Virus record (IMG/VR): IMGVR_UViG_3300045999_010308
Location: 1 to 64,000 of that record
DNA length: 64,000 bases
Direction: 5' to 3' (one strand)
Origin: an uncultured virus (IMG/VR IMGVR_UViG_3300045999_010308)
Lineage: Duplodnaviria > Heunggongvirae > Uroviricota > Caudoviricetes
Position numbers and translations under genes: made by a program
Shown: in pieces, positions 40,267 to 46,841 of the stretch
Layout of the letters: every line of letters starts with the position of its first letter
Numbering within the stretch: position 1 is the stretch's first letter
The notes under the pieces: model-generated
What the model saw: only the letters and a program-made list of their open reading frames with translations
What the model was told of the DNA's origin: nothing
Databases searched by the model: none

Positions 40267-40339
40267 TAGGTTGAGTAGGAATCGAACCTACCCAAGACGA
40301 ATTATGAGTTCGTTGCCTCAACCGCTCGGCCATCAACCC
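40267..40339 (-). tRNA. tRNA-Met/Ile2 (CAT)
   Basis: GGGTTGA/TCAACCT acceptor, ACGAA-CTCATAA-TTCGT anticodon arm, GTAGG-TTCGATT-CCTAC T-arm. Confidence 0.88.
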
Positions 40340-40812: not shown

Positions 40813-40828
40813 TATGTTTGATTTTAAG

Positions 40829-40911
40829 TGGGTTGGGCTGGATTTGCACCAGCGTGGAATTAAATCTACAGATTTACAGTCTGTCACCTTCGGCTACTCG
40901 GTCACTAACCC
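40829..40911 (-). tRNA. tRNA-Tyr (GTA)
   Basis: GGGTTAG/CCAACCC acceptor, ACAGA-CTGTAAA-TCTGT anticodon arm, long variable region, GCTGG-TGCAAAT-CCAGC T-arm. Confidence 0.85.
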
Positions 40912-41203: not shown

Positions 41204-42264
41204 CCTGCAATCTACTTAACAAGTCAAGCCGATTGTTACAAAAACCAGTAAATGCGATGGTGAAGGTAGCTTTTTCCTTGCAATCTACTTAACAAGTCAA
41301 GCCGATTGTTACCCTTAGTGGCGAAGGTTTCCCCTGAGATGAAGCGTCACTTGCAATCTACTTAACAAGTCAAGCCGATTGTTACGAAAAGCGAGGGGAA
41401 ACCGCGGCCACAATCTTAAGAGACTTGCAATCTACTTAACAAGTCAAGCCGATTGTTACTGTGGGGAGGGTTCCCCAGATTGTCGGTATAGTACCCTTGC
41501 AATCTACTTAACAAGTCAAGCCGATTGTTACGGAAAAGGAAAGATTCACTTGACAGATTCCAAGAGAAACTTGCAATCTACTTAACAAGTCAAGCCGATT
41601 GTTACCCCGATCGACCGCGAGTCTCTCTCGACAAAGGGGCTTGCAATCTACTTAACAAGTCAAGCCGATTGTTACCTGATTTTGATAACGTTGATTGGCA
41701 CTGGATAGGTCTTCTTGCAATCTACTTAACAAGTCAAGCCGATTGTTACTAGATGAAATTTTGGCCGCAATTGCTATAAGTAACCCACTTGCAATCTACT
41801 TAACAAGTCAAGCCGATTGTTACTTCGCGGTTTATCAGGCTTAAAACACCCCCATTGTGCTTGCAATCTACTTGACAAGTCAAGCCGATTGTTACTAACT
41901 GATTAAGATCATCGGAGTAGTACACTTCTGTCCTACTTGCAATCTACTTAACAAGTCAAGCCGATTGTTACCAATTGCCTCGATAATTTGATCCTTAGTT
42001 GCCCCTTCATCCTTGCAATCTACTTAACAAGTCAAGCCGATTGTTACCAGTTACCGGCTAGAGTGCCGGGAGTGTGGACGGTTCCAAACTTGCAATCTAC
42101 TTAACAAGTCAAGCCGATTGTTACAGGTTCATTTTGGCAAAATAAGCCAAAATGACGCGCTTGCAATCTACTTAACAAGTCAAGCCGATTGTTACTGGGA
42201 ATACAATTTTGATCGCTCAAGTGCCGGTCTTGCAATCTACTTAACAAGTCAAGCCGATTGTTAC
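41204..42264 (-). CRISPR. CRISPR array 1: 15 repeats (36 bp, GTAACAATCGGCTTGACTTGTTAAGTAGATTGCAAG), 14 spacers of 33-41 bp
   Basis: repeat starts on + at 41204, 41277, 41350, 41424, 41496, 41570, 41640, 41714, 41788, 41860, 41936, 42012, 42089, 42160, 42229; degenerate repeat at 41204 marks the trailer; ATTGCAAG 3' end supports minus orientation. Confidence 0.98.
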
Positions 42265-43946
42265 CCAGTCTCCCAGAGTGTAAGCTGCGTATAGTCTGCG
42301 TTGACTGTTTGCGCGGGTTGCGAGTGGATCGACCTTTTCCTTGTTTTTTTCTTAGGTGTCACTGGCTCGGAGGTCAAAACCAGTAAGGTTTCGAGGGTTT
42401 CTTCCCCAAGTAACAATCGGCTGGACTTGTCAAGTAATTCCTCCTGCGCTGATTCCTTATCGAAATCCTTCAGAGGCTTAACTTCCCCGGTGCAAGCCGG
42501 GTAGCTTCTTACGAAGTCTGCTTTCCCTAAGATGTTGATTGCGGCGGCCACATCTCTGGGTAAAGTACATCCACACTCTAAACATTTATGGGTGCGGGTT
42601 GATAAACTTTTTTTAACACGATTGCCACAGCGAGGACAATCCTGACTGGTGTAAGCTGGTTGAACTTTGATAAACTCTCGGTTGGGAGTTTTCATTTTCG
42701 TTTCAAGAAAACCAGTTAATTGTCCTAAACTAGCATCAGCAAAGGATTTATTTAATCCCCCTTTGGCTTTCGCGTTATTGCGTTCGTAGCCTTTACCGTC
42801 TTCTCTTTTTTTCGGTTTAGGTCGTCGCATTAAATTCTTTAAGTTGAGGTCTTCTACGGCTACAGCGCCATGATTTCTAGCAATATCGGTACTTAAGGCA
42901 TGATTAAATCCTTTGCGTTGTCTTGCTATTTTTTCGTGAGTTTTGGCAACTTTAGCACGAGTTTTAGCGAGATTTTTGCCGTCTTTATTTTCCCCTGCTT
43001 TATACTGTCTAGCGGTTTTTCTTTGCAGTTTTGCTAGTCTTTTTTGCTGTTTTCTATAGTATTTGGGCGGGTCAATTTGTTGGCCGTCGCTGGTACTAAT
43101 TATATATTCTAGTCCTACGTCAATACCGATTGCTTTATCGGAATCAGGTAGATCATCTACTTCAAATTCACCAAATAGACTTAGATAATATCCCGATGGG
43201 TATTTGATAATTGATACGGTAGAGGCTTTTCTGTCACCCCACCGAATATCTAAGGTATTGTTGATAATTTTTAAATCGCCTAATGTTTTGCCACAGCTAC
43301 CTATAGATATTTTATCCCCTTTTCTAACAGCGCAATCGCTGATCTCAGAATAAAGAGATTTAATTTTATCTTCTTTTCTTTTAAATCTAGGAAGTTTTCT
43401 GTCTAAATTCTTTTTATCGAGTTTGGTGTAAGCTTTCCAAGAATCAGCAAGCTTTTTTAAAACCCCTTTGACAAAAGCCATAGGGATGTCCTTGCATAGC
43501 TCTGGACATTTTTCTTTTGTAATACAGCCACATAACCCAAAATAATTATCAGATTTTAACCGCCGTTGAATAGGGATATGGACAGGATAAGAGTGACCTG
43601 CTTTTTGTCTTTTTTCTCTAGCTATCTGTATTTTAACTTTTTGCTTGCCAGTTAAATATTTGGGGGTGTAAAGGGGATTAGGAAGGGATTTACCTTTTTC
43701 GTTTTTCAGGGAGTCAATAAATTGAGGTTTTTTAGCTAAACGACGTTTAACCCGTTTAACTGGTTTTCCTGTTATTTTCTCAATCTCGTCGTAATACTTA
43801 TTAAGCTGATATTCCATCAGTAGCTCTAGCCCAAAATTCCAGACAGCTTTAAGCTCGTCCATCCAGCGATCAATATAGGCTCGCTGAGTAGCATTAAGGT
43901 TAAGCTTTATGTCCGCAATAGTTTTCTTGACTAGCATGGCTCTCAT
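42261..43946 (-). CDS. TnpB-derived compact type V CRISPR effector 1 (Cas12f/V-U-like), RuvC residues present
   Basis: N-terminal HTH_OrfB-like; RuvC-I GIDVG, RuvC-II VEDL, CPRC/CLEC Zn finger, RuvC-III RDVAAAINI; directly abuts array 1. Confidence 0.88.
   Translation of the reverse strand: MRAMLVKKTIADIKLNLNATQRAYIDRWMDELKAVWNFGLELLMEYQLNKYYDEIEKITGKPVKRVKRRLAKKPQFIDSLKNEKGKSLPNPLYTPKYLTGKQKVKIQIAREKRQKAGHSYPVHIPIQRRLKSDNYFGLCGCITKEKCPELCKDIPMAFVKGVLKKLADSWKAYTKLDKKNLDRKLPRFKRKEDKIKSLYSEISDCAVRKGDKISIGSCGKTLGDLKIINNTLDIRWGDRKASTVSIIKYPSGYYLSLFGEFEVDDLPDSDKAIGIDVGLEYIISTSDGQQIDPPKYYRKQQKRLAKLQRKTARQYKAGENKDGKNLAKTRAKVAKTHEKIARQRKGFNHALSTDIARNHGAVAVEDLNLKNLMRRPKPKKREDGKGYERNNAKAKGGLNKSFADASLGQLTGFLETKMKTPNREFIKVQPAYTSQDCPRCGNRVKKSLSTRTHKCLECGCTLPRDVAAAINILGKADFVRSYPACTGEVKPLKDFDKESAQEELLDKSSRLLLGEETLETLLVLTSEPVTPKKKTRKRSIHSQPAQTVNADYTQLTLWETG
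42410..42436 (-). ncRNA. anti-repeat (tracrRNA candidate) inside effector 1 CDS
   Basis: + strand GTAACAATCGGCTGGACTTGTCAAGTA is 25/27 identical to the 5' part of the crRNA repeat, i.e. inverted relative to the array. Confidence 0.8.
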
Positions 43947-44067
43947 GGATCGACCTTCCTTTATTCTTATTTAAATCTACCACAACCCTACTAGAAATGT
44001 CAAGTAAAAAGTCTAAAGATTTTTTGGGATACCAGTTCCCACATCAGAACCTGTAGCCCAACCCTTA
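43937..44067. repeat. 131-bp perfect direct repeat, copy 1 (promoter + RBS + MRA start)
   Basis: identical to 46832-46962; contains TTGACA-18-TAGATT and AAGGAAGG RBS. Confidence 0.95.
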
Positions 44068-44146
44068 GTTAGGCTAACCATGTTCCCAAGAGAAATCCTA
44101 GTAATAAAGTTGGTATTCCAATAAGATAAATTTCGTGATTTATTAT

Positions 44147-44434
44147 TTATTCTTTATAATTATTAATAGTTTCCCAGAAATAAATCTCTGCTAGTAATTT
44201 ATTTCTTTTAAGTATTAGTTTTTGCCAAAAACGAAAACTTTCAAAAAAGTTATCCCATCCACGAGGGACATCAACAAAAATACTATCTAAAATGATAAGT
44301 AGATACCTCTCGACAAAATTGCGTATTGTTAAGATTAAAGAACGTGGTTTTATTTCCATTTCTTTTAGTTCCGCTTTGGTTAATTTTTTCCTTAAAAATT
44401 GACTAATCTTTTTATCTAGTTGTGTTTGATTCAT
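44147..44434 (-). CDS. hypothetical protein
   Basis: ORF between array 2 and effector 1 promoter. Confidence 0.5.
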   Translation of the reverse strand: MNQTQLDKKISQFLRKKLTKAELKEMEIKPRSLILTIRNFVERYLLIILDSIFVDVPRGWDNFFESFRFWQKLILKRNKLLAEIYFWETINNYKE

Positions 44435-44458
44435 TGTTTTTTTCGGGTTTAATATTTA

Positions 44459-44854
44459 GTTTAATCTTAATAAGGCTTAAGCTTAATTGTTTCACTCAAA
44501 ATCACCCATAGGATGATATTAAGATGGTACGTTTCAATCCCTAATAAGGATTAAGGTTAATTGCTTTAACATATTAATTTGCAAACAATAGCTTCAGATG
44601 AAGTTTCAATCTCTAATAAGGCTTAAGGTTAATTGCTTCATCGCCTAGACTTGAAATAATTCTCAATGATTACATCGTTTCAATCCCTAATAAAGCTTAA
44701 GCTTAATTGCTTCTGTTAAAGGGGAAAAATTGTCATCATACCGTGAGTTTCAACCCCTAATAAGGATTAAGCTTAATTGCTTCGCTAATTGCGACCGGGT
44801 TAATTGGGACTACATTGGTTTCAACCCCTAATAAGGCTTAAGCTTAATTGCTTC
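44459..44854 (-). CRISPR. CRISPR array 2: 6 repeats (37 bp, consensus GAAGCAATTAAGCTTAAGCCTTATTAGGG(A/G)TTGAAAC), 5 spacers of 33-37 bp
   Basis: repeat starts on + at 44459 (degenerate), 44531, 44603, 44677, 44747, 44818; TTGAAAC 3' end on minus strand. Confidence 0.95.
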
Positions 44855-45007
44855 CCATCTTCTTTTAGCCCTTGATGTAAAAGGGTTTCGGGTAAGGATT
44901 GCGCCCCATTCGCTAAAATTTAGTTTTCAAGGTTCTGCTCATTCCAAAAAATCAGGCTAGTAAATCCCAGATCGTAAGTTGGTCGGGGTTTTCGGGGATT
45001 GCGCCCC
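44855..45007 (-). promoter_or_regulatory. leader of CRISPR array 2 (extends into effector 2 CDS)
   Basis: leader-like GAAACCCTTT...AAGGG; GGATTGCGCCCC repeated at 44896 and 44996. Confidence 0.55.
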
Positions 45008-46841
45008 GTGATTTTTTAGAACTTCGCTTAGATGCCTTATTGGGTAAGGCTTTCGGGTTATTTATGCCGTGGCTATCCTCGCACGGCTGAGGTGGGGCGG
45101 AAAGAAAAATAAGGGATTGCGAGTCATTCTCGGACTGAGTAGGTATGCGATTCCCTTCCTGCTTCATCTGCTTACTGATCGAGTGTTCGGCATTCTCTAT
45201 CGGCGCGTCCCCGATAGACTCTTGATTTGCATCAAGATCAGGCGTGAATTCCCTCGCTAAACCGAGGTATTTTCCAATCAAAGAGACAGGAAACTTGATT
45301 AAAGAGCCAATCGCTCTTAAAAACTCATCTCGTAAGCCACGAATCAGAATATTTGCGGCGGCATTCTGATCGGCGTGGGCTTCGTAACCACAGCTAGTGC
45401 ATTTAAACTTTGATTGACTAACGCGGTTAGCTTTATTAATATTACCACAATTGAAGCAAGTTTGTGAAGTATGTTTAGGATTAACTCGGATCACTTTTCT
45501 GCCACGTTCTTTGGCTTTATTCTCGATGAACGTGCGAAGTTGACCGATAGCATTATCAAGCAATACTTTATTTAATCCAGACTTTCTTTTTTTGCCATTC
45601 TGTTTATAGCCATTGCCGTCTTCCTTTTCTTTAGGTTTTGCGGCGGCTGTCATGTTTTTTAGTTTTAAATCTTCTAAAATAACTGATTGATATTCGCTGG
45701 TTATTTTATGGGCTAATTGGGCATTTCTCCCTTTTCTTTGACGGGCTATTTTCTCATGAACACGGGCAAGTTTAGCGTAAGTTTTACGCTGATTATTAGA
45801 GTTATCTTTTTGTCTAGAAGCTTGACGTTGCAATCGGTTAAGTCGCTTTTTCTGAATTTTTGCGTAGCGTTTAGCTTCTGATTGTCTCCCTAAGTCATCG
45901 GTAAATATTGCTACAGCACCCATATCTAACCCGACACACTTATCAGATTCTTTGTAGATCGTGTCGTCAGTTTCGATTTCGATAGTTAGCTGTAAATAAT
46001 ATCCCGTCGCTTTACGAGTAATTTTAGCCATTCGGGGAGCTTTCCCTTGCAATCGATCAAGTCCCCGTACTTTCAGTAATCCTATCTTTGAAGAAACAAT
46101 AACTCCATTAGATTTAATCTTTATAGTTTCAGGTTGACCGTTAACAAGAGTCTCTACCTTATCCCGTCTTCCTTTAAACTTAGGAACCCCACGAATACCT
46201 TTTTTAGCGGCATCGTAAGCGGGTTCAATCACACTTTTAAAAAAGCCTTTTTTAAACTCTGTTTCAATTTCACCGATAAATTTTGCTGTATCTTCTCGGA
46301 AATAAAAAGCAAGTTTCTGTCTATTAAGATAGTTAACAGCATCCTTATCAATATTTTCAGCATTCATAAAACGACGGATAGGAATAGCATCTAAGGGAGT
46401 GTACTCTTTTCCGTTACTTGTCTTTTTAAAATAGGCGATTTTACAGCAAGGATTACCGATTAAAAGTTCTTTCTCTTCATCTTTAAGGGTTTCAAACTCT
46501 TTTTCGTCGTAATGCCCAAAATAACTTAACTCCCATATTTCAGGGCTAAACTCATCAAATTTATGTTTTGTGCGATAATATCTTTGTTTTGATTCTTCCT
46601 TAAGTGCGATCGAAAGATTCCAGAGTAACTTACACGCCACTAAAGAACGATCAATCTCTGTGATTTGTTCTTTAGTAGGATGTATTTTAAATTCTAAGAC
46701 TTTCCTAGGAGGCTTTTCTTCCTTTGTCTTAGGAGTCTTTTTGACAATACTAAACCTTATATGCCCGTCTTTAGAACTAGGCGTTTTTTGAATTTGATAC
46801 TCATCTACTTTACGCTTAACTTTACTTTTTTTGGCTCTCAT
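44952..46841 (-). CDS. TnpB-derived compact type V CRISPR effector 2 (C2c8/V-U2-like), RuvC residues present
   Basis: LEFKIHPT..Q...I...WN; RuvC-I GLDMG, RuvC-II LEDL, CFNC/CTSC, RuvC-III ADQNAAANI; array 2 lies 98 bp downstream. Confidence 0.85.
   Translation of the reverse strand: MRAKKSKVKRKVDEYQIQKTPSSKDGHIRFSIVKKTPKTKEEKPPRKVLEFKIHPTKEQITEIDRSLVACKLLWNLSIALKEESKQRYYRTKHKFDEFSPEIWELSYFGHYDEKEFETLKDEEKELLIGNPCCKIAYFKKTSNGKEYTPLDAIPIRRFMNAENIDKDAVNYLNRQKLAFYFREDTAKFIGEIETEFKKGFFKSVIEPAYDAAKKGIRGVPKFKGRRDKVETLVNGQPETIKIKSNGVIVSSKIGLLKVRGLDRLQGKAPRMAKITRKATGYYLQLTIEIETDDTIYKESDKCVGLDMGAVAIFTDDLGRQSEAKRYAKIQKKRLNRLQRQASRQKDNSNNQRKTYAKLARVHEKIARQRKGRNAQLAHKITSEYQSVILEDLKLKNMTAAAKPKEKEDGNGYKQNGKKRKSGLNKVLLDNAIGQLRTFIENKAKERGRKVIRVNPKHTSQTCFNCGNINKANRVSQSKFKCTSCGYEAHADQNAAANILIRGLRDEFLRAIGSLIKFPVSLIGKYLGLAREFTPDLDANQESIGDAPIENAEHSISKQMKQEGNRIPTQSENDSQSLIFLSAPPQPCEDSHGINNPKALPNKASKRSSKKSRGAIPENPDQLTIWDLLA

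Follow-up and report, generated by a model that had tools for sequence, protein, structure and literature searches.

Where is the guide RNA scaffold of a CRISPR (short palindromic repeats, clustered and regularly interspaced) nuclease encoded when its gene runs without a gap into the array? This question is raised by a 64,000-nt stretch of DNA from an uncultured virus of the Caudoviricetes (IMG/VR record IMGVR_UViG_3300045999_010308, positions 1 to 64,000), referred to here as the window. On its minus strand, an effector open reading frame (ORF) of 561 aa (42261-43946) ends inside the first repeat of an array in which 15 repeats of 36 nt alternate with 14 spacers (41204-42264). Comparison of this sequence with those of its relatives leads us to conclude that an omegaRNA-like trans-activating CRISPR RNA (tracrRNA) is probably embedded in the coding tail of this c2c8 gene, and that the remainder of the tail probably serves as the CRISPR leader. 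The comparison covers 17 lineages: the two systems of the window, Aphanizomenon phage vB_AphaS-CL131 (CL131), and 14 loci from viruses or metagenomes, designated by L numbers below, that share 23-57% identity with the query.

The gene at 42261-43946 is assigned to the type V-U2 effectors (C2c8) and is TnpB-like. It scores 369.7 bits against the curated C2c8 (type V-U2) model NF038192, the cut-off of which is 350, and matches the Pfam families OrfB_IS605 and Cas12f1-like_TNB (PF01385, PF07282). The RuvC residues D276, E365 and D465 and the four zinc-finger cysteines are invariant among 39 sequences. The model score, the D-E-D triad with the zinc finger, and the adjoining array all agree with type V-U2. 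The effector also scores 218.9 bits against the NCBIfam guided_TnpB model and 171 bits against the curated IS200_TnpB model, the latter under its cut-off of 425; no Cas12n/c2c9 model is found among its NCBIfam matches at E ≤ 0.01, and it is therefore not placed in Cas12n. Its closest fold is Cas12p (9jfs_A; Foldseek E 1.3e-21, TM 0.57/0.60), with an expectation value of 1.2e-57 in a profile comparison; homology with the solved Cas12p is clear but distant (E 1.1e-26, ~20% identity). The fold is common to TnpB structures 8h1j, 8exa and 8iaz. A scan of genome contigs returned mostly ordinary TnpB genes, and a family search of 401 cyanobacterial genomes gave seven matches, in several of which a distinct non-coding region sets the gene apart from the array.

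Within the 3′ end of the gene, the minus strand reads TACTTGACAAGTCCAGCCGATTGTTAC at 42436-42410, encoding LLDKSSRLL. This 27-nt core is complementary to repeat bases 1-27 at 25 of 27 positions, the other two being a C/U mismatch and a G-U pair, and the pairing extends to repeat base 31 given one bulge, for an anti-repeat of 30 nt in all (42410-42439). An earlier note on this DNA had pointed to this complementarity with the first 27 nt of the repeat, to a GGGGAAGTTAAGCC segment upstream of it, and to an effector TAA lying inside the leader-proximal repeat. The sequence bears out all three, with the segment at 42488-42475 and the TAA at 42263-42261 within repeat 1 (42264-42229).

The complementarity is directly observed, and a chance origin of the anti-repeat is excluded. 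At up to three mismatches, the 27-mer occurs at 16 sites in the window, namely the 15 repeats and one inverted copy (0.00 expected, 100 shuffles), and its local pairing score of 60 compares with 23.9 ± 3.9 for 100 shuffled repeats, none of which equals it. This score replaced RNAduplex runs over the whole gene, in which shuffled controls gave loop-rich duplexes as good as the real ones in all lineages but W1. Cofolding of a 100-nt scaffold with the repeat gives −65.3 kcal/mol. Pairing is kept in all three anti-repeat alleles of the phage population (GAC, AGC and AAC, encoding D, S or N), and rare repeat variants in the population convert the mismatch or the G-U pair to a Watson-Crick pair. With 25 of 27 positions complementary and with covariation in homologues, as described below, the element has the properties of an anti-repeat of the tracrRNA class.

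Upstream of the anti-repeat, stem-loop 1 (42480-42506, minus strand) begins at codon Y482, and its loop CTTGCA (42496-42491) complements the repeat 3′ end TGCAAG. The core of this pairing is a 4-nt CTTG:CAAG pseudoknot. The loop reads CTTGTA in 27 of 28 population copies, which carry T at 42492, so only four nucleotides are constant; the C found there in the window lengthens the match with the repeat end to 6 nt. A hairpin at codon Y482, with a GGAAGUUAAGCC-like sequence after it, is present in every lineage. The hairpin loop is the exact reverse complement of the last four bases of the lineage's own repeat in 13 of 16 lineages and pairs with them via G-U wobble in the remaining three, and tetramers belonging to other lineages were found in 5 of 112 tests. 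Six repeat-end/loop pairings occur: CAAG/CTTG, GAAG/CTTC, AAAG/CTTT, GAAC/GTTC, CAAC/GTTG and AAAC/GTTT. In alignment A4, 96.4% of the cells of the hairpin and pseudoknot pair (71.6% in shuffles) with a covariation score of 0.635 (0.171 in shuffles), neither value being reached in any of 500 shuffles, and slid controls pair in 26-53% of cells. Because related sequences can beat such shuffles without any structure, the slid control and the tetramer matrix weigh more. Covariation across the homologues is nonetheless an observation, and a scaffold that starts at codon 482, over the 3′ end of the nuclease gene, with a covarying pseudoknot adjacent to the guide is the arrangement of the OMEGA type (short for obligate mobile element-guided activity).

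Could the tail instead be conserved purely as protein, through its EVKP, KQE and QLxLW peptides, with the RNA pairings as by-products? The tail is translated in most lineages and the codons of its C-terminal motif (QLTLW in the window) vary synonymously, both of which suit such an account, yet we give it hardly any credence. The loop tetramer follows the end of the repeat, and this is no property of a protein; L154 and L155 are set apart by paired, synonymous changes within stem-loop 1 (CCT/AGG versus CCG/CGG); and CL131 retains the scaffold and anti-repeat although its tail is truncated by a stop codon.

The putative embedded scaffold continues past stem-loop 1. In separate minimum free energy (MFE) folds of most lineages, the elements follow the order stem-loop 1, two-tier stem-loop 2, two more hairpins and anti-repeat. 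Stem-loop 2 (42443-42474, minus strand, in the window) was recognised in the MFE folds of 16 lineages, by eye in most and not counted pair by pair; in the longer homologues its outer stem CCUG:CAGG coincides with the conserved K-P and Q-E codons. The scaffold of the window is reduced, consisting of stem-loops 1 and 2 and then an unusually long anti-repeat. MFE z-scores lie between -3.3 and -5.8 in five of eight lineages (L162, -5.79; L191, -3.83; L189, -3.39; L182, -3.39; L166, -3.28) and are weaker in L168 (-2.09) and L183 (-1.69). RNAalifold on alignment A3 recovered stem-loop 1 only, the later hairpins being out of register in the MAFFT alignment.

Pairing between tail and repeat was compared across the lineages as well. 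A whole-tail test scored the local pairing of the 300 nt before repeat 1 with the repeat, against 100 shuffled repeats. The real score was reached by no shuffle in five lineages (both window systems, L182, L157 and L167), by one in L183, and by four in CL131 and L179, so that in 8 of the 17 lineages tail-repeat pairing outscores no fewer than 96 of the 100 shuffles. A test at the homologous position is more informative: in 13 of 16 lineages (the exceptions being L179, L191 and L167), the 10-mer with the best pairing to repeat bases -14 to -5 forms 8-10 pairs, lies 0-1 nt past a hairpin, and ranks 1-5 among 170-396 positions, and non-self repeats average 4.3-6.7 pairs. CL131 and L182 differ by a compensatory double change, CT/TC in the anti-repeat and AG/GA in the repeat. 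Synonymous differences at conserved residues amount to 97/356 in the scaffold versus 2169/4832 in the gene body (pooled by hand), and 12 of 16 non-independent pairs show the lower value in the scaffold; single-nucleotide polymorphisms in the population are too few in the tail for a statement on the ratio of nonsynonymous to synonymous change (dN/dS). The anti-repeat of the earlier note is thus found, among homologues, to belong to a conserved and covarying RNA scaffold of pseudoknot hairpin, stem-loops and anti-repeat within the coding tail.

These data also bear on two other explanations of the inverted copy. The anti-repeat:repeat duplex might be only a cis-acting, processing or regulatory site and not a structural part of the guide; RNase III, for example, would cut the 27-bp duplex, maturing the CRISPR RNA (crRNA) and shutting down the effector mRNA. 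The duplex is long (−43 kcal/mol), the anti-repeat lies on the same strand as repeat 1 and 145 nt upstream of it, and the window scaffold alone is weakly structured, as this explanation would have it. We consider it unlikely, since it leaves unexplained both the covariation of the 4-bp pseudoknot formed with the final repeat bases and the anti-repeats of 8-10 bp that homologues carry at the same place, which are too short for RNase III. Less probable still is that C2c8 works with crRNA alone, the inverted copy being a relic left by rearrangement of the array, and the hairpins in the tail being incidental. A relic would not covary with the differing repeats of lineages that are 30-50% identical. 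The repeat does self-fold at −8.7 kcal/mol and, in the accessible text of the two sources, a 2024 review table marks V-U2 as lacking a tracrRNA (PMC11641405) and the CL131 paper reports none for its V-U2 locus (PMC6293099); the same text of both contains no report of a search inside the ORF or of a V-U2 guide RNA experiment.

Several results weigh against an embedded tracrRNA. The whole-tail test is not significant in 9 of 17 lineages, where 11-89 of 100 shuffles reach the score, and an ungapped 12-mer pairing test did not discriminate. Two hairpins of the homologues are missing from the window scaffold, the 65 nt of which are not unusually stable (MFE z = -1.28; 19 of 200 shuffles fold equally well), and an Rfam search of the region found no family matching the scaffold. 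The lineages share ancestry, so that the counts overstate the number of independent events, and coding constraints could mimic part of the conservation. Taken with the covariation described above, the tracr-like reading is well supported by the comparative evidence.

If the first part of the tail would act as RNA, what of the stretch between the anti-repeat and repeat 1? The stop codon lies within repeat 1 in 12 of 17 lineages (overlap 4-30 nt). The ORF ends 5-20 nt before repeat 1 in three lineages, 97 nt before it in one (the second system of the window), and at a premature TGA in place of the relatives' CGA in one (CL131). On these sequences, the placement of the stop inside repeat 1 is judged to be no accident. 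The CL131 gene ends at this TGA (L001, 3905-3907); the related contigs L158-L165, L182 and L184 have CGA and read on for ~75-140 more codons, and the tail of CL131 is also frameshifted. At L181 (2310-2345), the repeat itself encodes the protein end, including an LLLW motif (…GDLLLWDVG, then the stop), and every repeat of that array consequently carries peptide-coding sequence.

In 37 arrays of a near-identical phage population, 95 distinct spacers were counted; the shared spacers are distal and the novel ones gene-proximal, and this polarity of the array is directly observed. Because new spacers sit at the gene-proximal end, the coding tail is taken to act as the leader, which upholds the proposal of the earlier note that the leader is also coding. 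Effector genes that are 95-100% identical carry almost entirely different arrays (41204-42264 and loci L002-L036 and L172-L174). For this reason spacer turnover in the phage population is considered to be fast, although no adaptation genes are seen near the locus. The spacers gave no megablast match in plasmids or phages.

Within the presumptive leader, homologues of the block at 42309-42332 (minus strand; alignment A4, columns ~520-545) read CGATCCGCGCAA, with identical R-S-A-Q codons though the proteins are only 35-45% identical. This conservation of nucleotides suggests that the CGATCCGCGCAA block is a DNA or RNA motif of the leader, for which it is a candidate. A GCGCAA-containing element is also present in the non-coding leader of the second system.

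The same bases are read as protein. AlphaFold (39-row alignment; mean predicted local distance difference test score, pLDDT, 76) predicts the effector tail to be disordered from about residue 481, with no secondary structure past residue 475 and pLDDT below 60 from about residue 481, where the scaffold starts. The motif Q[LM]x[LIVMF][WF] occurs within the last 30 aa of 57 of the 88 homologues of at least 480 aa, against 0.0045 per 30 aa elsewhere; in the window its codons, for QLTLW, occupy 42273-42287 (minus strand). The QLxL[WF] peptide is preceded by a K/R patch, which is present in 53 of the 88. We take this peptide to resemble the bacterial sliding-clamp-binding consensus.

We propose that the segment between codon Y482 (42503) and the stop, the c2c8 3′ end, has three readings. 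As protein, it would form a disordered tail ending in the basic patch and the conserved QLxLW peptide. As RNA, its first ~95 nt (42506-42410) would be a tracrRNA-like, omegaRNA-derived scaffold, in which the loop of stem-loop 1 forms the 4-bp pseudoknot with the last bases of the repeat and is followed by stem-loop 2 and by the anti-repeat, pairing with repeat bases 1-31; scaffold, repeat and spacer would together rebuild a guide of the TnpB/Cas12p type. The last ~145 nt of the tail would act as CRISPR leader and reach as far as repeat 1, in which the ORF terminates. The scaffold RNA would be bound by the nuclease, and may be excised from the mRNA or the pre-crRNA; the cut would be made by the effector, as happens in TnpB, or else by RNase III acting on the 27-bp duplex. 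A bolder version would join the tracrRNA scaffold to a leader with the R-S-A-Q motif and to a disordered tail whose sliding-clamp-binding QLxL[WF] peptide tethers the nuclease to replicating DNA, with scaffold excision limiting nuclease synthesis; we regard this three-way code as possible but doubtful. If the embedded scaffold is real, a single-guide design for this nuclease, which has a folded core of only ~480 aa, would consist of scaffold 42506-42410, a linker, the repeat and a spacer.

The earlier note further proposed that protein, scaffold/tracr, leader and array derive from one transcript, which goes beyond the present data. A sigma-70-like promoter upstream of c2c8 (TTGACA, 18 nt, TG-TAGATT; 43974-44003, minus strand), identified by consensus match alone, scores 10/12, and no other strong site occurs on the minus strand from 42300 to 44200; the lack of a predicted internal promoter in that interval is weak evidence. 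Parts of the gene are covered by RNA-library contigs of four studies, in which DNA carry-over is possible. In two of the studies the tail and repeat 1 are bridged (contigs 42235-42440 and 42229-42671), though contigs cannot show transcripts. The points where these contigs stop, 42235 and 42229, are consistent with the assembly breaking in the repeat; they are not RNA ends, and the uncovered parts carry no meaning.

A second c2c8 gene (629 aa; 44952-46841, minus strand) lies in tandem just upstream of the first. It scores 463 bits against NF038192, and its product is 30% identical to the first effector. Its predicted scaffold is likewise in the coding tail: the loop GTTT (45259-45262) of stem-loop 1 (45252-45269) complements the repeat end AAAC, and an anti-repeat (45108-45119) with 9 of 10 pairs follows directly past a hairpin. 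The array of this system (six repeats of 37 nt; 44457-44854, minus strand) begins 97 nt beyond the ORF stop, and its repeats resemble the cyanobacterial CRISPR-DR5 of Rfam (32.9 bits, under the gathering score of 40). L125, a close homologue in a cyanobacterial genome, has as neighbours a cas2-like gene and a host array whose repeat is similar.

The window derives from an 82.8-kb virus record with a completeness rating of 91%. Family searches show neighbours of phage type, including Rha, a baseplate 'megatron'-like protein, NlpC/P60 and a DUF3987 primase. No cas genes were found among the 14 neighbouring ORFs scanned, the whole 82.8-kb record not having been scanned for cas1/cas2. Genes for tRNA-Met and tRNA-Tyr are located just downstream of the array (40267-40339 and 40828-40911, minus strand).

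The arrangement proposed here is not unprecedented, its kind being known from Cas12n, Cas12p and TnpB. In TnpB (IS200/IS605, e.g. ISDra2), the scaffold of the omegaRNA, also called reRNA (right-end element RNA), overlaps the 3′ end of the gene, and its pseudoknot adjoins the guide. There, scaffold and single guide form one continuous RNA at a transposon end, whereas the guides of C2c8 come from a 15-repeat, spacer-acquiring array and not as a single continuous guide at a transposon right end, the putative scaffold being split from them by the anti-repeat:repeat duplex. In the TranC transposon-CRISPR intermediates (LaTranC, PDB 9jfo/9jfq), the omegaRNA is reportedly split functionally into tracrRNA and crRNA; TranC is far more distant from C2c8 in sequence (E 4e-18, zinc-finger part only). 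The V-U2 system of CL131 (38% identity) shares the scaffold hairpin and carries its anti-repeat at the corresponding position, and differs in that its ORF is cut short by TGA (CGA in relatives), leaving the tail untranslated.

Cas12n (type V-N, formerly V-U4/C2c9) has a tracrRNA that overlaps its ORF, according to the accessible text of PMC12216341; C2c8 would share this feature but belongs to another family, and no statement of a Cas12n ORF ending inside repeat 1, or of a coding leader, was found in the portions of the literature available. Cas12p ('Cas12 hacker', type V-P), the closest solved relative of C2c8, is described in the accessible part of a preprint (bioRxiv 10.1101/2025.01.20.633832) as a phage-borne nuclease whose repeat is 37 nt long, whose tracrRNA pairs through bases 7-10 with the final 4 nt of the repeat in a 4-bp pseudoknot, and whose C-terminal domain is disordered; that part of the preprint does not state the position of the tracrRNA relative to the ORF. 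This architecture matches the one inferred here. Cas12p has a thioredoxin-binding insert and is only ~20% identical to C2c8.

The earlier note had interpreted the locus as an omegaRNA-to-tracr intermediate. The TnpB-like protein and the scaffold in the coding tail are supported; the uniqueness it implied does not hold, Cas12n and Cas12p having been overlooked. The 2024 review table, in its accessible text, lists V-U2 as the only original V-U subtype still under the V-U name, with no size or protospacer adjacent motif (PMC11641405), and our literature search on V-U2, C2c8 and Cas12p found no paper characterising a V-U2 guide RNA. If the embedded scaffold is real, it would explain how a V-U2 tracrRNA was missed by searches limited to intergenic DNA, and would illustrate how tightly a single piece of phage genome can combine the roles of protein, RNA and leader. 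Set beside the known systems, what is new is the assignment of such a layout to V-U2, the presence of zero non-coding DNA between effector and array, and the layering of candidate leader and peptide motifs on the same bases.

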